32,000 bases of DNA from Candidatus Saccharimonadota bacterium (GCF_047555085.1 NZ_CP180230.1:1014239-1046238), one strand, 5' to 3'; shown: positions 2,882 through 23,594, numbered from the stretch's first letter. Numbers and translations are program-made. The notes: generated from the letters alone by a model not told the origin.

Positions 2882-5545
2882 ATGAGTCTGGAGCGATACA
2901 AGGAAAAAGTAAAGGATAATTTTTCAAGAGAAGGCCTCAAAAATAACTGGGCGTTTCTAGCCGTTGCAGCAGTTTTCGGAGTCGCTCTATGGCTCAGATA
3001 TCTTCCTGAACAGGGAATGCAGAATCTTCAGGCCCTGGATCCATACATGATCTTCAGGATGTCCCAGCATCTGGCATACGAAGGAGCTATGCCTGTAGCA
3101 GACTTTATGAGGTACTTCCCTTACAGCGCTCCAACTTACCTACTTAATATAGGAGATATCGTCTTCCCTGCTATACTTTACTGGATGGGGCCTTCGATGA
3201 TTTTCGAGAACTATCTTGAGTGGGCGCAGTTCTATCCTGCTCTTATGGGTGCTCTATCTACTGTTGTAATGTACTTTTTCGGTAAAGAAGTTGCAAACAA
3301 GCGTGTAGGAATTTTCTCAGCCTTTTTCCTAGCTGTAATCCCTGGCGTGATGCGTCGTTCATCCGCAGGATTCTTCGAGAAAGAGCCTATCGGGACGTTC
3401 TTCATGATGCTGACACTGCTCTTCTTCGCAAGAGCATGGAAGCGTGAAAGCTACATTTCGGGAATACTTTCAGGCCTCTCACTTGCATTCTTCACAATCT
3501 CCTGGGGAGGATCCCGGATGCTATGGCTGCTTCTTCCTCTCGTAGTCGGCTCCCTGATATTCATAGACGAGGAAGTCCACGAACTGATCGTTGCTTACAC
3601 GCCGACAGTGCTTGTAGGAGGCGGAGTGGCAGCAGCACTCAACTACAATCGTTACTGGATCACAGGAACACTTTTCGTCGCAAACATCGGCCTCTTGGGC
3701 CTGCTGTGGAGCAGATACCTGATCGAGGAACTTGATCTCGTCAAGGAAAAGAATCTGAAGTACTACGTTCCAACAGTCTCAATAACAGGCCTCATCTTTG
3801 TACTGCTTTCACCACTCTACTCCAACTTCATCGCCTCCAAACTGATGAGCATTATTAACATGGTGACTCAGACGACAGGAGGAGATGTCATCGGAGGAAC
3901 AGTCGCAGAAAACACAGCTCCAGGCCTCTCAAATCTTATAACAAGCCTTGGAGCAGAGACAGCTGGCAGCATCCATCCTGTTCTCGGAACTTTGGCCAGC
4001 ATAGTAGGTTCATGGCCTATGATGATGCTGGGAATAGGATTCATGGGCTCAACAGTTGCTTTCATGCTTCTAAAGAAATACGGCCTTGTAGAAAGCGAGG
4101 TAAGCGACAAGATCTACTTTGCAGGCTTTGAAACAGTTTTCCTATCCTGGATGCTTCTTGTAACAGGCTTCTTTGAGCAACTGCTGATCTTCAGCGCTCT
4201 AGCCGCATTAACAGTTATCGGAATGTTCATAGCGTTCACAAAGTACCTCGACGACGACTACACGTTCAAGCTTGTGACAATGGTGACCGGAACAGGCCTC
4301 GTGCTTGAGATACTGATGCTTTTCTCCGGTGCACAGATAGCGTACACCGTCATCCCTGCAACAGCTCTCGTGCTGGCAGGCCTTGTAGCACTTTACTACA
4401 ACGACAGGCTTGGAAGCAGAGAAATCGAGATGGAGTGGATAATCGTGCTCCCTCTTGCATGGGTGATCACAAATCTGCTGGGATCAGTTGCGAAAAGCAG
4501 GATAATCTTCCTTTCAACCTTTGCAGTGGCATTCGCAGCAGGATACGGCCTCGCCAAGATTATCGGAGGCCTCGAAAACATGGATCTCAACGAAGTGTTC
4601 GAGTTCGAGAACACTGAAAGACTTAAGTACGCTGCAATAGCGATCATACTAATTTTAACTGTTGCAGTGAACTTTTCAGCAGGATTTATCAACGTTCAGA
4701 GTGTTAGCGGATCCCCTAACCAGGCCTGGGATCAGAGCCTGAACTACATGGATGAACAGACTCCTGACGGATCAGTAGTCATGTCCTGGTGGGATTACGG
4801 ATACCATTTCCAGACAATCGGGAGAACTGCCTCTGTAGCGGACGGAGGAAACGCTGGATACTACTCGAACGAAGTTAGAGCAACGAACATGCCTCTGGCT
4901 GATTTCCTGACTTCCGATGATCCTATGAATACTCCAGGCCTTGACAGTTTCCTGGAGCAACATTCCGTGGATTACATACTGCTCGATAATACAATGATCG
5001 GGAAGTACAGTGCAGTGAGCACAATTTCAAACGGAGCAGCCAATCTCCCTAACGAGTCCACAGGAGATCCTAGCTCAATGCTTACACTGTCCACTTCAGC
5101 AAACATACAGGACTCCATAAGCCAGAGCGGAAACACGACAACAGTAACATTCACAAGCTCTAGAGGCCTGCAGATCTATGCACCAGTACAGATCTCCAAC
5201 AACAGCATCTCTCTATCAGATGAACAGGCCCCGACACTACAACAAACGACAGGCAGAGGAACAGTCAGACAGCCTATTGACTGCATACTTACAGAAAACG
5301 GAAAGATAGAGTTCGATGTCGACACCCAGATCCCTTACTGTCTCGCAGAGGATCCTTACTTCAATCTGGAAAGAGGATTCCAGACACGACTACAGGCCCA
5401 GTCAGTGCTTGTACCGAAGGAGATCTCGGACTCCCAGCTTGTAGAGCTTTACATCCAGGATGGAGAACAGCTTGACTACGTTGAAAAAGTAGAAGAGGCC
5501 TCTAACGACTACGTCAAGATGTGGAAAGTGACTAAGACAGAATGA
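2882..5545 (+). CDS. aglB: dolichyl-phosphooligosaccharide-protein glycotransferase, STT3/AglB family
   Basis: 887 aa with about 13 N-terminal TM helices. The catalytic WWDYG motif is encoded at 4787-4801. A DK/MI-type segment LLDNTMIGKY follows downstream, then a soluble C-terminal domain. Confidence 0.9.
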   Translation: MSLERYKEKVKDNFSREGLKNNWAFLAVAAVFGVALWLRYLPEQGMQNLQALDPYMIFRMSQHLAYEGAMPVADFMRYFPYSAPTYLLNIGDIVFPAILYWMGPSMIFENYLEWAQFYPALMGALSTVVMYFFGKEVANKRVGIFSAFFLAVIPGVMRRSSAGFFEKEPIGTFFMMLTLLFFARAWKRESYISGILSGLSLAFFTISWGGSRMLWLLLPLVVGSLIFIDEEVHELIVAYTPTVLVGGGVAAALNYNRYWITGTLFVANIGLLGLLWSRYLIEELDLVKEKNLKYYVPTVSITGLIFVLLSPLYSNFIASKLMSIINMVTQTTGGDVIGGTVAENTAPGLSNLITSLGAETAGSIHPVLGTLASIVGSWPMMMLGIGFMGSTVAFMLLKKYGLVESEVSDKIYFAGFETVFLSWMLLVTGFFEQLLIFSALAALTVIGMFIAFTKYLDDDYTFKLVTMVTGTGLVLEILMLFSGAQIAYTVIPATALVLAGLVALYYNDRLGSREIEMEWIIVLPLAWVITNLLGSVAKSRIIFLSTFAVAFAAGYGLAKIIGGLENMDLNEVFEFENTERLKYAAIAIILILTVAVNFSAGFINVQSVSGSPNQAWDQSLNYMDEQTPDGSVVMSWWDYGYHFQTIGRTASVADGGNAGYYSNEVRATNMPLADFLTSDDPMNTPGLDSFLEQHSVDYILLDNTMIGKYSAVSTISNGAANLPNESTGDPSSMLTLSTSANIQDSISQSGNTTTVTFTSSRGLQIYAPVQISNNSISLSDEQAPTLQQTTGRGTVRQPIDCILTENGKIEFDVDTQIPYCLAEDPYFNLERGFQTRLQAQSVLVPKEISDSQLVELYIQDGEQLDYVEKVEEASNDYVKMWKVTKTE

Positions 5546-6695: not shown

Positions 6696-7073
6696 TTATT
6701 CCTCGTCTTCTTCACGCTCTTCCTTGTAAGGATCTTCTACGCGCGTGATATCTCCCGGTACGTAAGGGAACGAGATCTCAAGAATTTTGGCAACTTCGCT
6801 ATCGATATTCTGGATCTGATGCCTTTCATTCGAACGGATAACCATGGCATTGCCCTTTTCAATATCCTTCATATCTTCTTCATGACGGATAACGACGTTA
6901 CCTTCCTCCAGATAAATTATATCGGCCTGACGCTCGTGATAGGCGTAGGAAGTCATCTCATCTGCATCTATAACAAGTCTTCTGATTCCTAGCATACCTG
7001 TCTGGTCGCCGACATCGACCTGAGTCATGAGAACCTGTTCCTCAAATCCCCAGGGCTTGTCAATACGTCCCAT
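6696..7073 (-). CDS. cupin-domain protein (type II phosphomannose-isomerase-like small cupin)
   Basis: 125 aa. It has an N-terminal KPWGFEE motif and a cupin-like H/E pattern (YHERQADIIYLEEG ... NERHQIQN). It lies in the same minus-strand run as the epimerase gene upstream of it. Confidence 0.55.
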   Translation of the reverse strand: MGRIDKPWGFEEQVLMTQVDVGDQTGMLGIRRLVIDADEMTSYAYHERQADIIYLEEGNVVIRHEEDMKDIEKGNAMVIRSNERHQIQNIDSEVAKILEISFPYVPGDITRVEDPYKEEREEDEE

Positions 7074-7098: not shown

Positions 7099-8037
7099 TT
7101 ATACGTGTTTACTGTAGTACTCCACAGTCTTCTCAAGGCCTTCCTCGAAGCTGTAAGAAGGAGACCAGTCCAGAAGACGCTGAGCCTTTGAATTATCCGC
7201 ATTATGCTGATGCACATACTTGTCACGCGGATTTTCAATTCTCTCGGCATCAATATCCGTTCCCAGAGCATCGTTAAGCTTCTCAACAACTTCATTGAAA
7301 GTTACAGGATCACCGCGTCCAACATTGAACACTTCTCCATCAAGCTCATCCTTTCTCTTAGAGGCCTTGATCAAGGCATCCACAACATCTTCAACGAAGA
7401 CGAAGTCTCTCTCCTGAGATCCATCTCCCCATATGACAGGCTGCTCATCATCCATCATCTTCCAGAGGAACTGAGTAACCACGTTAGCATACTTTCCTTT
7501 AGCTCTTTCATGAGGCCCGAAAACAGAGAAAAATCTCAGGCCTGTGGTCTCCATCTGATTATTGTAACTGTAGGCCTCCGCATACTTTTCACGCGACATC
7601 TTCGAAGCAGTATAAAGATTCGAAGGCACAGGATTCTGATCCTCCCTGTGAGGCGGCTCCACGCTTCCATACATCGAAGAAGTGGATGCGTAGACAACTT
7701 TCTCGACTTCTTCATCCTTTGCAGCTTCAACTGTCTTGATGAATCCTTCGATATTTACTCGCGCACCTTCAGCAGGATTTTCTTTGTGCATCGGACTGGA
7801 TGAACGTGCTGCCAGATGGAAAACAGTATCAACTCCCTGCATAGCCTCCTCTACAGTTTCTTCATCGAGTACAGATCCCTGTACAAACTCAATATCATTT
7901 TCAACTTCTGAAAGATTGTTCTCATCCCCAAGATAGAGATCGTCGAGTACAACTACGTCTTTGCCTCTTTCAACAAGTTCTTCTACAAGATTTGAACCGA
8001 TGAATCCTGCTCCACCTGTAACCAGCACTCTTTCCAT
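7099..8037 (-). CDS. NAD-dependent nucleotide-sugar epimerase/dehydratase (extended SDR)
   Basis: 312 aa with a TGGAGFIGSNL Rossmann motif, ASTSSMYG, the catalytic YTASK (Y-x-x-x-K), and LRFFSVFGP. Confidence 0.85.
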   Translation of the reverse strand: MERVLVTGGAGFIGSNLVEELVERGKDVVVLDDLYLGDENNLSEVENDIEFVQGSVLDEETVEEAMQGVDTVFHLAARSSSPMHKENPAEGARVNIEGFIKTVEAAKDEEVEKVVYASTSSMYGSVEPPHREDQNPVPSNLYTASKMSREKYAEAYSYNNQMETTGLRFFSVFGPHERAKGKYANVVTQFLWKMMDDEQPVIWGDGSQERDFVFVEDVVDALIKASKRKDELDGEVFNVGRGDPVTFNEVVEKLNDALGTDIDAERIENPRDKYVHQHNADNSKAQRLLDWSPSYSFEEGLEKTVEYYSKHV

Positions 8038-8071: not shown

Positions 8072-9265
8072 TCAGTACTTTTCTACTGCCTCAGATACCG
8101 TGTTTGAGAGTTTTGTCGGATGATCAAACGAGGGATAATCATGTTCAGATGCAAGTTCATGTGCATCAGTACCTTCTACCGGAAGAGGTATCACCGTATC
8201 AGGATTTCTGATATAGTCCGAACTGCCGTTGCCGTGATGTAGCACGTTACGAATATCATCTCCGAAAACCTCGTTACGGGCCTTCATGTAGGCCTTGACT
8301 CCTTTCAGCTTGCCGGAATCAGGATGCCAGTACTCGAATCCTCCATCGGAATGAGACTCGAATCCCCAGTCCGGATTCGCGGATTCTACAGCAGCCTTCA
8401 TTCTTGACTGAAGATAGCTCTCATCCACATCAATATCAGCACGATCCCTGTAGAAAACAATATCTCCTTCATCATCTCTCTCAAATCGGAAGCCTTTGAA
8501 CTGTTCTAGCTCCCGGAAAACCTCTGTCATAAATGCATAGGCCTCTCTAGAATCATCCACTCTTATGGCCCCTTTATCATCAGGATTCTCAGGGCCTCCA
8601 GTTATCTCAACATCATTTACGCTTCTATCATAGGCCTCATCATACTGGAAGCTTTCAAGGCCTTCAAAGTGTTCGCTGTATATATCCTCCGTTGTCTTTC
8701 CCTCATTGACGAATGTAGGATCGTCTCTCGTGCTTCCACGAGAATGATCTGTCGTTCCTTCTGCCTCTACTCTTGTAACTCCTACTCCCCAGGAGAGATT
8801 GTTCTGGAAGTTTCCTTTCCATCCTTCATCCGCAAGAACGCCGTAAATATTCTCCTGAATATCCATGAAGTCGTCCCTGGAGTACTCTACATCAGGGAAG
8901 AAATCCTCGGTATGGAAAACATCTCCGTTTATCTCAAATACCGTACCACGGCCTCCAATAAGATCAATGTTTTTCAGTGCCGGAGCCTCACTCGCCCATT
9001 CGTCCCTCAACTTTCTCTGGTACGGAACAGGCTTCCCGGAATTGAAAGCGACTCTAACACTATCTAGATTCATGAGGCCTTCTATAGCATCGAATATGTG
9101 CCTGTCATAGACTTCTGTAGTCGCTCCTCCATGTTTCAATGTGTCATCGATGTCGAGAGTTACAGCTACTTCTCCTTCATCTTCAAGCATCGAATCTATC
9201 TGGCGAGCTGCCTCCTCATCCAGAGCATCAGGATCAGGATTCTCAGATACTGTTTTCACTGACAC
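8072..9265 (-). CDS. HAD-superfamily (type IIB, Cof/SPP-like) phosphatase-like protein with a very large acidic cap region
   Basis: 397 aa. Motif I is DIDDT, motif II FNSGKP, motif III lysine in SGKLKGVKAYM, and motif IV is degenerate (HHGNGSSD). The start is GTG at 9265. The function is not determinable from sequence alone. Confidence 0.45.
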   Translation of the reverse strand: MSVKTVSENPDPDALDEEAARQIDSMLEDEGEVAVTLDIDDTLKHGGATTEVYDRHIFDAIEGLMNLDSVRVAFNSGKPVPYQRKLRDEWASEAPALKNIDLIGGRGTVFEINGDVFHTEDFFPDVEYSRDDFMDIQENIYGVLADEGWKGNFQNNLSWGVGVTRVEAEGTTDHSRGSTRDDPTFVNEGKTTEDIYSEHFEGLESFQYDEAYDRSVNDVEITGGPENPDDKGAIRVDDSREAYAFMTEVFRELEQFKGFRFERDDEGDIVFYRDRADIDVDESYLQSRMKAAVESANPDWGFESHSDGGFEYWHPDSGKLKGVKAYMKARNEVFGDDIRNVLHHGNGSSDYIRNPDTVIPLPVEGTDAHELASEHDYPSFDHPTKLSNTVSEAVEKY

Positions 9266-9351
9266 TCACCCGAAAAACACACATGGTAATATGATGTATT
9301 ACTTTTTGTTTTTAAATGTGTTTCCATGCGTGCAGAAAGATGCGAGGAAGC

Positions 9352-10095
9352 CTAGTCAAGATCCTTCCATCTTCCGCCGTAGATGTATCCGGAAAGTTCT
9401 CCGTTATCGGCAAGTTTCTCGAATACCTCTTCCAGGGAATTTTCATCAAGTCTGTCGAAAATATCCGGATCAAAAATGTATCTGCCTGCATTGATAAGGC
9501 GTGAGAAAACTTCGCCTTCAGGCTTTTCCTCGAACCCCAGAATCTTTCTGCCTTTCAACTTGGCTACACCGTAACCAGATGGATCTTCAACACTTGTCAG
9601 GGCCATTGTCGATATCGAATCCTCATCCCTGTGAATCTCTACCATCTCCCTGATATCGACATCAGCAATAACGTGTCCGTTGACAGTTACGAAAAGGCCT
9701 GAAATCTCATCAGAAATATTTTCAAGCGCTACAGCCGTTCCTTTAGGCTCGTCCTCGGAAACATACTCGAGTTCCATTCCCTCGAAACGTGAGCCCAGTT
9801 CATCCATCAACTCATCAACATTTTGGCCTGCCAGGAGAAAAACACGTGAAATACCCTGTTCAGATAGATTCTCAAGAACATGCGAAATCACAGGCCTTCC
9901 CCTGTACTCATTCATAGCCTTGTTCTCAGGATCACCGCACAGAACTACAGCCGTGTCAAGGCCTCGTCCCTCAAGATACTCAGTTAAAATTTCCTCAACT
10001 TGCTGAGAACGATTCACGGAATTCTCTTCAGCTTCAGAATCAATTCTTTCAACCAGCTTCTCTTCCAGAGTCAGGGAGACACGCTTCTTCGGCAT
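9352..10095 (-). CDS. ribbon-helix-helix (CopG-like) domain fused to a sugar-1-phosphate nucleotidyltransferase-like domain lacking the G-x-G-T-R loop
   Basis: 247 aa. The N-terminal KKRVSLTLEEKLVERIDSEAEENSVNRSQQVEEILTEYLE shows an RHH pattern. The remainder aligns by eye to the NTP_transferase fold (KGTAVAL, EDPSGYG, GFEEKP, INAGRYIF). The signature LAGGxGTRLxPLT is replaced by LCGD-PENKAM. Confidence 0.7.
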   Translation of the reverse strand: MPKKRVSLTLEEKLVERIDSEAEENSVNRSQQVEEILTEYLEGRGLDTAVVLCGDPENKAMNEYRGRPVISHVLENLSEQGISRVFLLAGQNVDELMDELGSRFEGMELEYVSEDEPKGTAVALENISDEISGLFVTVNGHVIADVDIREMVEIHRDEDSISTMALTSVEDPSGYGVAKLKGRKILGFEEKPEGEVFSRLINAGRYIFDPDIFDRLDENSLEEVFEKLADNGELSGYIYGGRWKDLD

Positions 10096-10119
10096 AATAC
10101 AGAGTGTTACCTCTACGTT

Positions 10120-10127
10120 TTAATTAA
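10120..10127. promoter_or_regulatory. palindromic TATA-like element TTAATTAA shared by two divergent, probably leaderless genes
   Basis: This is the only strongly A/T-rich element in the 51-nt spacer 10096-10146. It is centred about 24 nt upstream of ATG 10147 (+) and about 28 nt upstream of ATG 10095 (-). Confidence 0.3.
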
Positions 10128-10146
10128 TCACTGAAAAAATAACTGT

Positions 10147-11046
10147 ATGAAAATCGCTGTCACCGGAGGAGCAGGATTCATAGGATCACACCTGTGCGAA
10201 AAACTCGTAGAAAAACATGAAGTAACCGCAGTAGATAACTTCTCCTCAGGCCTCAGAGAAAACCTGCCCGAAAAAGTAGAAATTGTAGAACACGACATAA
10301 AAGAAAAAGGCCTGGAAGAAATTTTCCAGGACAAAGACGTCGTCTTCCATCTGGCAGCGAATCCAAAAGTCAATACTTTCCCGGATGACAGAGATAAAGA
10401 CTTTGATGAAAACCTTGAGGGAACTCACAACGTTCTGGATGCAGCAGAGACCTCAAACGTCGAAGAAATAATTTTCACATCTTCATCAGTTGTCTACGGC
10501 GAAGACGCCGAGATACCGACACCTGAAGACGCCAACCTCGATCCTATCTCGATGTACGGGGCGACAAAAGCCGGAGGAGAACACATGTGCAGCGTCTACT
10601 CCGAGATATTCGATATAGACCTGACTATCGTCAGACTGGCGAATATAGTCGGCGGCCGGAATCAGAAAGGCGTAATCTACGATTTTATCCACAAACTGAA
10701 AGACAACCCGGAGAAACTCGTCATCCTCGGAAACGGAAAACAGAGGAAATCATACCTACACGTCGAAGACACTGTAGAAGGATTCATCAAGGCCTGGGAA
10801 TCCGATAAAACAGTTTTCAACATCGGAAGCGAGGACTCCATCGACGTAGATGGCATAGCCGAAATAGTAGCCGAAGAAATGGATCTTGAACCAGAATACG
10901 AGTACACAGGCGGAGAGAAAGGCTGGGAAGGCGACGTACCCGAGATGCGTCTGAGTATAGAAAAACTGAAAAACGAAGGATGGAGGCCTGAACACAACTC
11001 CTCCAGCTCCGTCAGGAAAACAGTCCAGGAACTTCTGGACAGATAG
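10147..11046 (+). CDS. NAD-dependent nucleotide-sugar epimerase/dehydratase (extended SDR)
   Basis: 299 aa with TGGAGFIGSHL, TSSSVVYG and the catalytic YGATK. Confidence 0.85.
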   Translation: MKIAVTGGAGFIGSHLCEKLVEKHEVTAVDNFSSGLRENLPEKVEIVEHDIKEKGLEEIFQDKDVVFHLAANPKVNTFPDDRDKDFDENLEGTHNVLDAAETSNVEEIIFTSSSVVYGEDAEIPTPEDANLDPISMYGATKAGGEHMCSVYSEIFDIDLTIVRLANIVGGRNQKGVIYDFIHKLKDNPEKLVILGNGKQRKSYLHVEDTVEGFIKAWESDKTVFNIGSEDSIDVDGIAEIVAEEMDLEPEYEYTGGEKGWEGDVPEMRLSIEKLKNEGWRPEHNSSSSVRKTVQELLDR

Positions 11047-11050
11047 AAAT

Positions 11051-12118
11051 TTACTCGTTCCACGTCCAGGCAACGTTACCTGTGTAGTTCCAGGCGAAAA
11101 CGATGAGAATCGCCAGGAAGTTAGCCAGGAGATAGTAAAGGCCTGTGAACTCTGTCAACGCCCAGAAAACCGCGATCTTTATACCGAGGCCTACAAGCGA
11201 TACAGCGTTGAACTTCGCTGCTCTCGATATGAAATGCTTCAAAGTTTCTCCTCCGATGCCGTTGAACGTCCAGAGATCGTTCCAGGTGTAGTTCCAGAGT
11301 ATAGCGGCCTCAGTCGCCAGTCCAGCGGATAAGACCTGATGAAGGCCTCCGAACTGTGTCAAAAAGTACAGGAGCCCCATATCAACGAATACTCCTGTCG
11401 CTCCGACAGTTCCGAACTTCAGAGGCCTTTCGTTTTTCTTCAGGAATGTTTTGCCGAAGAAAACCGCGTTTTTAACCAGATCCATGTGGTCGTACTTTGG
11501 ATTACCGGCTCTTCTCTTTTCAAACTCTATAGGAACTTCTTTGACGCTGTATCCATTGTCGACTATCTTCAGGAGTGAAGCTGCCTGGAAATGGAATCCG
11601 TCAGGCAGATCTTCAGTAAAATCATTCATTACTTCTCTATTGTAGGCTTTGAATCCTGATGTAAAGTCTTTGACCGGGAATCCGAGGCCGTAACGGTACA
11701 GATAGCTTCCGATAAGCGGGAAGATCCTTCTGTGAAGCGGATCCTGTCTGTCGCCGTCTTCCACGTATCTTGAGCCCACAGCTACATCGTTATTTTCGAG
11801 TGCGTCGAGAAGATCGTTGATGTATCTCGGCGGATGGGAGAAATCAGCATCCATCTGGACGATTTTCTCGCCTTCAGCTTTCTGGAATCCCTCCTTGTAA
11901 GCAGAGCCGATCCCGCCTTTACCGTCTCTTTCAATAAGTTTCAGGAAATCTCTGTCCTCCTGTAAATCTTTTACTTTTTCAGCGGTACCGTCAGGCGAGT
12001 TATCATCCACTATAACGATTTCAAAGTCTCTGCCCTCCAGTTCATCTGCTATACTTTCGATCAGAGGCCTCACATTATCCGATTCATTGTACGTGGGGAT
12101 GACTACAGAGACTTCCAT
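11051..12118 (-). CDS. GT2 dolichyl-phosphate hexose (mannose) synthase-like glycosyltransferase with C-terminal GtrA-like membrane domain
   Basis: 355 aa. It has VVIPTYNESDNV, VDDNSPDGT and DADFSHPP (Dpm1/AglD-type motifs). The C-terminal roughly 120 aa has four TM helices of GtrA type (FGTVGATGVFVDMGLLYFL...). Confidence 0.85.
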   Translation of the reverse strand: MEVSVVIPTYNESDNVRPLIESIADELEGRDFEIVIVDDNSPDGTAEKVKDLQEDRDFLKLIERDGKGGIGSAYKEGFQKAEGEKIVQMDADFSHPPRYINDLLDALENNDVAVGSRYVEDGDRQDPLHRRIFPLIGSYLYRYGLGFPVKDFTSGFKAYNREVMNDFTEDLPDGFHFQAASLLKIVDNGYSVKEVPIEFEKRRAGNPKYDHMDLVKNAVFFGKTFLKKNERPLKFGTVGATGVFVDMGLLYFLTQFGGLHQVLSAGLATEAAILWNYTWNDLWTFNGIGGETLKHFISRAAKFNAVSLVGLGIKIAVFWALTEFTGLYYLLANFLAILIVFAWNYTGNVAWTWNE

Positions 12119-22253: not shown

Positions 22254-23594
22254 TCAGGTAAAAATCTTCAACTTGTCAATCATACTCTCAGCTTTTTCCT
22301 CTAATCCCTCAAAAACTTCCTCAGCCTCCTCTTCACGGAAATCCGAGTTAATCCTAATATTCTCTTCACTGTAGCCTCTGATAACTTTTTCACCATCCTT
22401 TTCTACAGAAACACTGTCCTTCGTAAAGTCATATATCATCTCGCCCTCCACAAATTTTGGATTATTGGCGATATCCCTGCCAGGATACTCGGTAATAGCA
22501 TACTCAACCTCATCTATAGGCTTCAACGTCCCGTCTGCAATATCAATAATATGATCATGTAGCTGTCTGGTCTCTACCTGATATTCTATGTTCTTATTCA
22601 CATCTTCAGGAAAATCCTCAATTAGGGGTACGCGAGTAACTTCATCGTGAAGACTACCGAAATGCTCAAAGTGATCATGCTCTCCGAATGCTTCTCCGTG
22701 ATCGGATGTTATGATGAACACTGTATTCGGATAATCCTCTTTAATACTATCATAGAGCTCCTTAATCTTCCCATCAAGATACCTCTGCTCGCCTTTGTAG
22801 AGATTTTTCATGGTCTCCAACTCCTCATGATTCACATCCACATCATTCCTGTAAAAATGCGGCGTATGACGCCTCACATACGGAGAGAAACTAGCAAGAG
22901 ATGTAAGCGATAGCCACTTCTTTTTATTATCTAAAAACTTATGGGAATAAGGAAAGGGTGGGCTATAAGGGTCATGCACCTCAAGATAGTTTATAAACAT
23001 ATAAAATGGGTTGTCAGATGCATTAGCATGATTTAAAGCAATCTCATTAGTTCTCTTCGCCCCACTATCATTTAGGAGTAAGACCTCTTTAGTAAGATAT
23101 TTGCCAAGGTTAAATATACCTCTGAAACCTTCCTCTCTGTAACAGGACTTTACTGCTGCACCAAATTTTCCAAAAATACCCTCAGCTTTTTCTATATCCT
23201 CCATCACCCCAATCTTGCTCATGTAATTCGAATTCACATAGTCATATCTGTCAAAATACTCATCAAAACCATACTGAGGCCAGAGAAATGGAACATTTAC
23301 AACACCTATCGTCTCATAACCTCTTTCTGAAAGATGAGAAGGAAACATATCCAAATTTCTCAAATCGTCTTCCGCTGTCATGACTCCATGATGATGTTGA
23401 TGTTTGCCTGTAAACATTGATGCATGTGAGGGCATAGTCCATACCGCCTGAGACACCGGCCTCTCGTACTTAACACCTCCTTCAGCCAGAGAGTCCAAGA
23501 AAGGACTTGTTTCGTCTTCACATCCATAGCAGGAGAGAGTATCTGCCCTGGCTGTATCCATAACAATATGAACTATATTCGGTTTTTCACTCAT
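22254..23594 (-). CDS. sulfatase-fold alkaline-phosphatase-superfamily protein with Thr nucleophile motif (long form 2)
   Basis: 446 aa with IVMDTARADTLSCYGC, WTMPSHASMFTG, YLEVHDPY and ITSDHGE. It is a paralog of 18340-19740. Its ATG overlaps the stop of the upstream gene (ATGA). Confidence 0.75.
   Translation of the reverse strand: MSEKPNIVHIVMDTARADTLSCYGCEDETSPFLDSLAEGGVKYERPVSQAVWTMPSHASMFTGKHQHHHGVMTAEDDLRNLDMFPSHLSERGYETIGVVNVPFLWPQYGFDEYFDRYDYVNSNYMSKIGVMEDIEKAEGIFGKFGAAVKSCYREEGFRGIFNLGKYLTKEVLLLNDSGAKRTNEIALNHANASDNPFYMFINYLEVHDPYSPPFPYSHKFLDNKKKWLSLTSLASFSPYVRRHTPHFYRNDVDVNHEELETMKNLYKGEQRYLDGKIKELYDSIKEDYPNTVFIITSDHGEAFGEHDHFEHFGSLHDEVTRVPLIEDFPEDVNKNIEYQVETRQLHDHIIDIADGTLKPIDEVEYAITEYPGRDIANNPKFVEGEMIYDFTKDSVSVEKDGEKVIRGYSEENIRINSDFREEEAEEVFEGLEEKAESMIDKLKIFT

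Follow-up and report, generated by a model that had tools for sequence, protein, structure and literature searches.

The 32,000-nucleotide stretch NZ_CP180230.1:1014239-1046238 (GCF_047555085.1, Candidatus Saccharimonadota bacterium; hereafter the window, with positions counted from its first letter) carries, at 9352-10095 on the minus strand, a gene, here placed in a very small halophilic archaeon, for a protein of 247 amino acids (ATG start, stop codon at 9352-9354) that joins a ribbon-helix-helix (RHH) DNA-binding domain to a nucleotidyltransferase-like domain. Our results suggest that this fusion protein is probably a ligand-sensing RHH repressor of sugar and nucleoside diphosphate sugar (NDP-sugar) metabolism. 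An earlier reading, made from the sequence alone, had proposed an enzyme fold recruited as a ligand sensor, and this idea is supported here by the deletion of the signature loop, the replacement of a metal-binding Asp by His and the presence of canonical paralogues in the same genome. Its proposal of a regulatory role gains support from a conserved two-box candidate operator, found at the gene's own start and at the promoter of the adjacent HAD-like gene string, and from the linkage of gene and site across the phylum Nanohaloarchaeota.

Domain architecture and decay of the active site

The RHH-like character that the sequence-only reading had given to the first 45 or so residues was confirmed, since Pfam RHH_1 matches residues 5-42 above its cut-off (26.4 bits against 20.5; E 6.4e-6). 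This domain (residues 1-45; 9961-10095, minus strand), delimited with RHH_1 and a profile of the orthologues, comprises the ribbon K3-K4-R5-V6-S7-L8-T9, the N28-R29-S30 turn and two helices (12-25 and 29-43, as seen in an AlphaFold 2 model), and residues K3, K4, R5, S7, L8, T9, N28, R29 and S30 are invariant among the orthologues. When a profile of 18 orthologues was compared with solved RHH proteins, the Rv0298 antitoxin (1.9e-7), CopG (9.4e-4) and NikR (1.7e-3) were found, and Pfam gave no match to the NikR_C domain in the fusion protein. The AlphaFold 2 model, computed from a 42-sequence alignment (mean predicted local distance difference test score 94.2, predicted template modelling score 0.85), displays a strand-helix-helix topology with an extended segment at residues 1-11 and a turn before helix 2, followed by an alpha/beta nucleotidyltransferase fold. 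Note that the model is a monomer and that RHH strands pair only in the dimer.

The remainder of the protein (residues 48-247; 9355-9954, minus strand) indeed belongs to the RmlA/GlmU/AglF-type fold to which it had been assigned: Pfam NTP_transferase (PF00483) matches residues 59-245 over profile positions 23-228 of 245 (E 2.4e-25), and the motifs quoted at the time (VVLCGD, PENKAM, KGTAVAL, NGH, EDPSGYG, GFEEKP and INAGRYIF) are all present in the translation. The NCBIfam models Arch_glmU, mannose-1-phosphate guanylyltransferase and AglF were also matched (E about 1e-24 to 1e-26), at scores that do not reach the equivalog thresholds (best 91 bits against 292 for Arch_glmU; others far below their cut-offs). 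With Foldseek, the structure falls within the sugar-1-phosphate nucleotidyltransferase fold, the best solved structures being human GMPPB (7d74/7d72), Arabidopsis VTC1 (7x8j) and the RmlA-type 4ecm (E 1e-17 to 6e-19, best 5.6e-19, template modelling score about 0.7 for the top matches); the inactive GMPPA is also listed. The protein ends directly after the W-x-D motif, and the C-terminal left-handed beta-helix is absent. An assembly or frameshift artefact as the origin of the fusion was ruled out by more than 120 clusters of full-length orthologues with 56-85% identity.

Within this domain, the N-terminal pyrophosphorylase signature is missing, as the sequence-only reading had stated. The first 22 positions of the PF00483 profile, which hold GxGTR, remain unmatched, and in alignments CGDPENK stands against (A/V)GGxGTRLRPLTxxxPK of the canonical relatives, a deletion of about 10 residues that takes out both G-x-G-T-R and P-x-T and leaves no intact GxGTR. 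The site of the deleted loop corresponds to G54-D55-P56-E57-N58-K59 (9919-9936, minus strand). In RmlA/GlmU-type enzymes, the signature Arg and the loop hold the nucleoside triphosphate (NTP) phosphates, and since the loop is deleted here, catalysis by the fusion protein appears very unlikely. The change of NGD to NGH, noticed at the same time, was borne out by the HMMER alignment to GMPPB, in which 'vnghv' lies opposite 'LNSDV' and H141 falls on the Asp of LNSD; N139-G140-H141 (9673-9681, minus strand) thus has His where NGD/NSD has the metal-binding Asp.

These features proved highly stable among 120 orthologues, with His at position 141 in 119 of them, N139-G140-H141 invariant save in one sequence, and C53-G54 invariant as well (Cys53 in 119 of 120). 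The metal-binding Asp is kept in at least 90% of the wider RHH-nucleotidyltransferase family, and in all 14 unfused relatives of the sample, which have no RHH domain, the loop is canonical and Asp, Lys and Asp are present. On its sugar and base sides the fusion protein retains the motifs GTA, YGV, EEKP, INAG-Y and W-x-D; in the same 120 orthologues, position 59 is K or R in 101, K191 of EEKP is kept (115 K, 5 R) and so is D245 of W-x-D (73 D, 40 E). In addition, the genome encodes three canonical PF00483 paralogues with intact motifs, whose matches start at profile position 1 or 13, and catalysis would therefore be dispensable in the RHH-fused copy. We also observed that the nanohaloarchaeal clade alone has Cys53 (9937-9939), which adjoins the deleted loop, where the canonical L-A-G-G strand has Ala.

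Two-box sites and their link to the gene

The consensus candidate operator consists of two 7-bp boxes, GTAWTAC-N3-GTAWTAY, with a 10-bp period. In leaderless genes, it is found 6-9 bp past the TATA box and overlaps or adjoins the start codon. Three places in the window match the box pair with up to 2 mismatches, where 0.6 are expected by chance, and the two best, with one mismatch each, flank the fusion gene; the third (22731-22747, 2 mismatches) lies inside an open reading frame and was taken as chance. Candidate operator 1 (10094-10110, minus strand) reads GTAACAC (10104-10110)-TCT-GTATTAT (10094-10100), and its second box overlaps the ATG at 10095-10093, so that the gene's own promoter has the sequence TTAATTAAAA-cgtagag-GTAACAC-tct-GTATTAT-G. 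The A/T box TTAATTAAAA (10118-10127), probably a TATA box, is shared by the two divergent leaderless genes on either side of the 51-nucleotide spacer, and an equivalent TTAAA is found 26-33 nucleotides before the ATG in 21 orthologous loci. Candidate operator 2 (9286-9302, minus strand), GTAATAC (9296-9302)-ATC-ATATTAC (9286-9292), lies in the promoter of the gene at 8072-9265, 6 nucleotides downstream of the TATA box TTTAAAAA (9309-9316).

As for the spacer itself (10096-10146), a single palindromic A/T box (TTAATTAA) stands midway between the two divergent genes, and this layout is kept in about 14 orthologous spacers of 51-58 nucleotides, with a G-TTTT-rich stretch on the epimerase side. 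Inverted repeats between TATA box and ATG (AGAG-N6-CTCT and similar) were considered as an operator and rejected, being no commoner than in control promoters: among orthologous promoters, arms of at least 4 occurred in 71% versus 44% in controls, and arms of at least 5 in 14% versus 21%.

At the scale of the genome that contains the window (G000, 1.05 Mb), 17 box pairs were identified, 9 of them at gene starts, against a mean of 15 pairs and 1.46 at gene starts (maximum 8) for column-permuted motifs in 150 trials. The genes concerned are the fusion gene, the 397-amino-acid HAD-like gene at 8072-9265, and those for a GlmU-like nucleotidyltransferase, a ROK kinase, a DeoC-type aldolase and phosphoglycerate kinase, together with genes that have variant boxes. 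Four perfect GTAWTAC-N3-GTAWTAT pairs lie outside the window (G000:C1:14926-14942, 184256-184272, 331189-331205 and 883228-883244), at the starts of the ROK kinase, phosphoglycerate kinase, GlmU-like nucleotidyltransferase and DeoC-type aldolase genes. The variant boxes belong to two LamG/ConA-like lectin genes (G000:C1:26083-26100 and 468507-468524), which display an identical GTGATAC-TGTA-GTATGAC 4 nucleotides before their starts, and to a Usp gene (G000:C1:613931) with a similar pair; surface lectins may share the regulon.

Across the phylum, the strict 17-mer occurs in 2-13 copies in each of 63 out of 70 Nanohaloarchaeota genomes, and the reversed control only once in all of them together. 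Conservation was checked for three promoters, and the orthologous promoters keep the pair in 25 of 30 cases for the nucleotidyltransferase, 22 of 29 for ROK and 23 of 29 for the aldolase (control starts, 0.8%), with a conserved layout TATA-N6-9-GTAWTAC-N3-GTAWTAT(G). The gene itself is found as a single-copy full-length orthologue in about 53 of the 70 species genomes and in 23 of the 28 high-quality ones, in three families; the raw tally was 56 of 70, of which three were paralogue-only matches. Lineages f2 and f3 have neither the gene nor the two-box site, and genomes with zero sites amount to 5 of 15 without the gene versus 2 of 55 with it (Fisher p 0.004, kinship uncorrected). A strict pair lies at most 1.5 kb from the fusion gene in 22 of 30 loci, usually just past its 3' end (30-520 nucleotides), in the promoter of an acidic gene that evolves fast and looks HAD-like in the window, and in 8 genomes from two deep families, f4 and f5, TTTA-ATAATAC-N3-GTAATAC precedes the ATG of the fusion gene by 6-9 nucleotides.

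Boxes of this kind were also found near related fusion genes of other lineages. In the wider family, GTATGA/TCATAC is the most enriched upstream hexamer (39 of 71 loci, against 3 expected), ranking above the TATA words, and phased boxes are obvious in the upstream 100 nucleotides. The box GTA[AT][GTC]A[CT] occurs in 70% of the wider-family upstream regions versus 14% upstream of the other genes in these loci, and box pairs 9-12 bp apart in 32% versus 1%. GTATGA is the half-site of Escherichia coli NikR (PMC7055735), with which the wider family shares the ribbon R-x-T-x-T. The ribbon moreover covaries with the box, R-x-S-x-T (the type of the Nanohaloarchaeota) going with GTAWTAC 7:1 and R-x-T-x-T with GTATGA 29:9 (Fisher p 0.0014, or 0.009 after near-duplicates were collapsed).

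Proposed mechanism and competing explanations

We propose that the fusion protein would act as a one-component transcription regulator, in which the enzyme-like domains would join RHH dimers seated at both boxes on the same side of the DNA helix; a distance of one helical turn between boxes suits a pair of such dimers, by analogy with tandem-box RHH repressors and NikR tetramers. Occlusion is a common mode of archaeal repressors, and since the boxes lie after the TATA box and across the starts of leaderless genes, their occupation would be expected to block initiation, which would make the fusion protein a repressor. A hexose-1-phosphate or NDP-hexose held in the remnant active site would alter the affinity for the operator, as co-repressor or inducer; the kept sugar- and base-side motifs, the lost triphosphate clamp and the precedent of GMPPA point to such a ligand. 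The predicted regulon would comprise the fusion gene (perhaps with the divergent epimerase gene), the HAD-like/epimerase/cupin string, and the genes for the GlmU-like nucleotidyltransferase, the ROK sugar kinase, the DeoC-type aldolase and phosphoglycerate kinase. The sequence-only reading had named a nucleotide-sugar sensor in control of the precursors of the glycosylation island: its ligand-sensing part is supported, with nucleotide sugars as only one option for the ligand, and the predicted control concerns not the island as a whole but the two flanking promoters together with the distant genes for the sugar kinase, the aldolase, phosphoglycerate kinase and the GlmU-like nucleotidyltransferase.

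Several observations weigh against a repressor role. We infer DNA binding, ligand binding and the loss of catalysis alike, and the counts overstate the statistics, because related genomes are not independent. In the genome G047 (a single contig, 99% complete) the gene has been deleted, with the sequence on either side conserved, and perfect box pairs remain at the ROK and aldolase genes. G031 (93% complete) shows no orthologue and has 8 pattern matches, which amount to about four palindromic sites because each is counted once per strand. Moreover, in family f1 only 3 of 22 loci have a strict pair at the gene's own promoter, and sites on or near the gene would be equally expected if the gene were the target of some other factor. 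In G047 (G047:C1:953296-954428; L238, L239), about 1.4 kb is lost, including the fusion gene, and the flanks still match a congener; a divergent or split orthologue was sought there by protein, RHH profile and DNA searches, and none was found.

The same observations would suit a fusion protein that is merely a member of the regulon, with another factor binding the GTAWTAC boxes and the RHH domain binding other DNA or only dimerising: both genomes without the gene and with sites favour it, sites at the gene's own promoter cannot tell a target from an autoregulator, and in family f1 these sites are weak. Nevertheless, we consider it unlikely, since the same boxes go with the same fusion in archaea and in bacteria with no other shared DNA-binding protein evident, the ribbon is like that of NikR (half-site GTATGA), and the type of box changes together with the ribbon residue. 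Apart from the fusion protein, the only close RHH candidate of the window genome is a true NikR homologue (L006:1492-1878, plus strand; G000:C1 about 971.4 kb), a protein of 128 amino acids with RHH_1 and NikR_C (E 2e-12), divergent from a ZIP-type metal permease; it was rejected as the box binder, as its ribbon E-I-I-S-L-S has no Arg and no box pair lies nearby.

Two further explanations retain the enzyme side of the protein. A bifunctional 'trigger enzyme', that is, an active nucleotidyltransferase that also binds DNA in the manner of PutA, BirA and NadR, would account for the retention of K59, K191 and D245, which may allow residual or altered chemistry and also counts against a purely sensory protein; it would fit as well with some distant members in which a fully canonical loop goes together with a position before a phosphohexomutase gene, like ordinary pathway enzymes. 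This seems highly improbable to us for the window protein, in which the GxGTRxxPxT loop is wholly deleted and Asp is replaced by His, both being kept by the unfused relatives, and whose genome already holds canonical paralogues. Least credible is a non-catalytic subunit regulating a canonical nucleotidyltransferase, as GMPPA does for GMPPB, with an RHH domain that only oligomerises. GMPPA and GMPPB chains are indeed among the best structural matches, and the GlmU-like paralogue would be co-regulated via the same boxes, but the beta-helix that mediates GMPPA/B assembly is absent from the fusion protein, and oligomerisation alone would not require an invariant DNA-reading ribbon and N-R-S turn. 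A ligand-sensing repressor remains the explanation that we favour.

Gene neighbourhood, wider family and comparison with known systems

The window gene lies in a glycosylation region with the gene order AglB, GT4, cupin, epimerase, 397-amino-acid HAD-like protein, fusion gene, divergent epimerase and DPM-synthase-like GT2. The 51-nucleotide spacer to the head-to-head NAD-dependent epimerase/dehydratase gene (10147-11046, plus strand; Pfam) and the HAD-like, epimerase and cupin genes downstream on the minus strand were all found as the sequence-only reading had described them, and the head-to-head epimerase recurs in about 18 of 30 orthologous loci, with 62-77% identity. The HAD-IIB-like gene (8072-9265, minus strand), a probable target, has an acidic product of 397 amino acids that matches TIGR01484 below the cut-off (E 7.8e-4), gives no Pfam match and has trehalose-phosphate and sucrose-phosphate phosphatase-type HAD-IIB proteins as structural neighbours (template modelling score about 0.5). 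It is not conserved as an orthologue among the orthologous loci. The position downstream of the fusion gene is instead held by a fast-evolving, very acidic protein of two families without detectable mutual similarity: one of 397 amino acids, in which DxDxT is present and HAD-IIB signals are weak, and one of 301 amino acids (L009:34-939, minus strand) with no Pfam match. The epimerase gene at 7099-8037 and the cupin gene at 6696-7073 (both minus strand) follow after gaps of 34 and 25 nucleotides, respectively, and, judging from this spacing only, are possibly co-transcribed with 8072-9265.

Fusions of RHH and NTP_transferase are found in DPANN archaea and in bacteria of the candidate phyla radiation (CPR). 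In an exhaustive search of representatives, about 96 of the best 150 are full-length and RHH-fused, with 30-46% identity and alignments running from residues 1-5 to 243-247, and named members come from Micrarchaeota, Diapherotrites, Woesearchaeota and Gottesmanbacteria. The peptide pattern I[RK]NRSHAIE was found at no fewer than 440 loci among 185,579 species genomes, in DPANN lineages and CPR bacteria (Gottesman-, Saccharibacteria, Kerfeldbacteria). Note that several contigs with a DPANN-type gene (L038-L117) bear the titles 'uncultured Methanosarcinales' or 'Aminicenantes bacterium' and are probably mislabelled or mis-binned. Members of the wider family are annotated as 'sugar phosphate nucleotidyltransferase' or 'mannose-1-phosphate guanylyltransferase', and in the literature that we searched, no description of an RHH-nucleotidyltransferase fusion was found.

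The loop varies strongly within this family: among 173 RHH-fused sequences, 15 have the canonical GxG[TS]R, 75 a full-length but substituted loop (GIK, GVN, GSQ and others) and 83 a short one. In a FastTree phylogeny built from the enzyme domain after the columns of the loop had been taken out, the nanohaloarchaeal sequences form one clade of 30 (support 100), all with the short loop, inside the RHH-nucleotidyltransferase family, and at least 7 changes of loop state fall on well-supported branches, a count of lower confidence since the tree is a quick one. The DPANN and CPR fusions resemble the window protein in their two domains, end-to-end homology and GTA-type boxes near the gene. In many of them the Asp is retained and the loop is full-length or canonical, whereas the nanohaloarchaeal clade has the loop deleted and Asp changed to His and is further set apart by the invariant Cys53, the GTAWTAC type of box and the divergent epimerase neighbour.

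In the wider family, a PGM/PMM phosphohexomutase gene lies directly downstream on the same strand in 51 of 75 loci, and canonical nucleotidyltransferases, epimerases, UDP-glucose dehydrogenase, aldolases and GlpX recur nearby. The phosphohexomutase neighbour is not found at the window locus, where the next gene is the HAD-like one and PGM/PMM genes lie elsewhere in the genome; the HAD-like protein was rejected as a stand-in for the missing phosphohexomutase because there are two such PGM/PMM genes. In Altiarchaeota-type loci (L083, L089, L091; around 4290-4931, minus strand), the fusion gene was observed head-to-head with a DPM-synthase-like GT2, the enzyme type encoded at 11051-12118 in the window.

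To our knowledge, gene regulation is almost unexplored in DPANN archaea and CPR bacteria, whose genomes hold very few transcription factors. We advance a broader proposal only tentatively, as one that may well turn out otherwise: RHH-pseudo-nucleotidyltransferases could be the main carbohydrate regulators of these ultra-small organisms, the enzyme having turned into a sensor many times, and could read the hexose-phosphate/NDP-sugar pool to control both the entry into glycolysis (sugar kinase, aldolase, phosphoglycerate kinase) and the precursors of surface glycans, in Nanohaloarchaeota via a near-invariant two-box operator overlapping leaderless starts. If true, this would provide a testable triplet of regulator, operator and regulon that is conserved phylum-wide, and the clear passage from enzyme to pseudoenzyme sensor could be followed in nature, with a loop first canonical, then substituted and finally deleted. 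It would also give access to the way in which sugar uptake and glycolysis are coupled, in episymbionts, to the production of the surface glycans that they need for host contact. In addition, annotation of these proteins under enzyme names would inflate metabolic reconstructions, and the 17-bp operator on the TATA-to-ATG stretch of leaderless genes would be a useful marker for the annotation of nanohaloarchaeal promoters. New in this analysis are the full loop deletion with the Asp-to-His change in the nanohaloarchaeal clade, the GTAWTAC box variant with its ribbon covariation, the candidate phylum-wide regulon reaching into glycolysis and the counter-example of G047.

Among known systems, NikR (PDB 1q5v, 2hzv) likewise has an N-terminal RHH domain with an R-x-T/S-x-T ribbon and an N-R-S turn, followed by a ligand-binding and oligomerising C-terminal domain, and its half-site is the GTATGA box of the wider family. 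In contrast, the C-terminal domain of NikR is the ACT-like NikR_C and that of the fusion protein a nucleotidyltransferase fold, the targets of NikR are nickel transport genes and the candidate targets here are sugar genes, and a true NikR is encoded separately in the window genome. The NikR operator consists of inverted half-sites, GTATGA-N16-TCATAC (PMC7055735). Unlike these half-sites, about 16 bp apart, the boxes of the window are in tandem, with a 3-bp spacer and a 10-bp period.

GMPPA, a catalytically inactive paralogue of GDP-mannose pyrophosphorylase that serves as a non-catalytic sensor of the pathway product, has the same enzyme fold as the body of the fusion protein (PDB 7d72-7d74). 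It regulates its enzyme partner allosterically and has no DNA-binding domain, whereas the fusion protein has the RHH domain and no beta-helix. In PutA, BirA and NadR, a DNA-binding head (RHH in PutA) sits on a metabolic enzyme domain, and a metabolite controls the transcription of the pathway; these are active enzymes, in contrast to the fusion protein, which has neither the signature loop nor the metal ligand. Finally, the RHH dimers of Omega, CopG and MetJ bind adjacent 7-8-bp boxes cooperatively, and the window boxes resemble their sites in heptad size and tandem layout, but these proteins are small and stand alone without an enzyme-derived sensor domain, and in MetJ the co-repressor sits directly on the RHH dimer.

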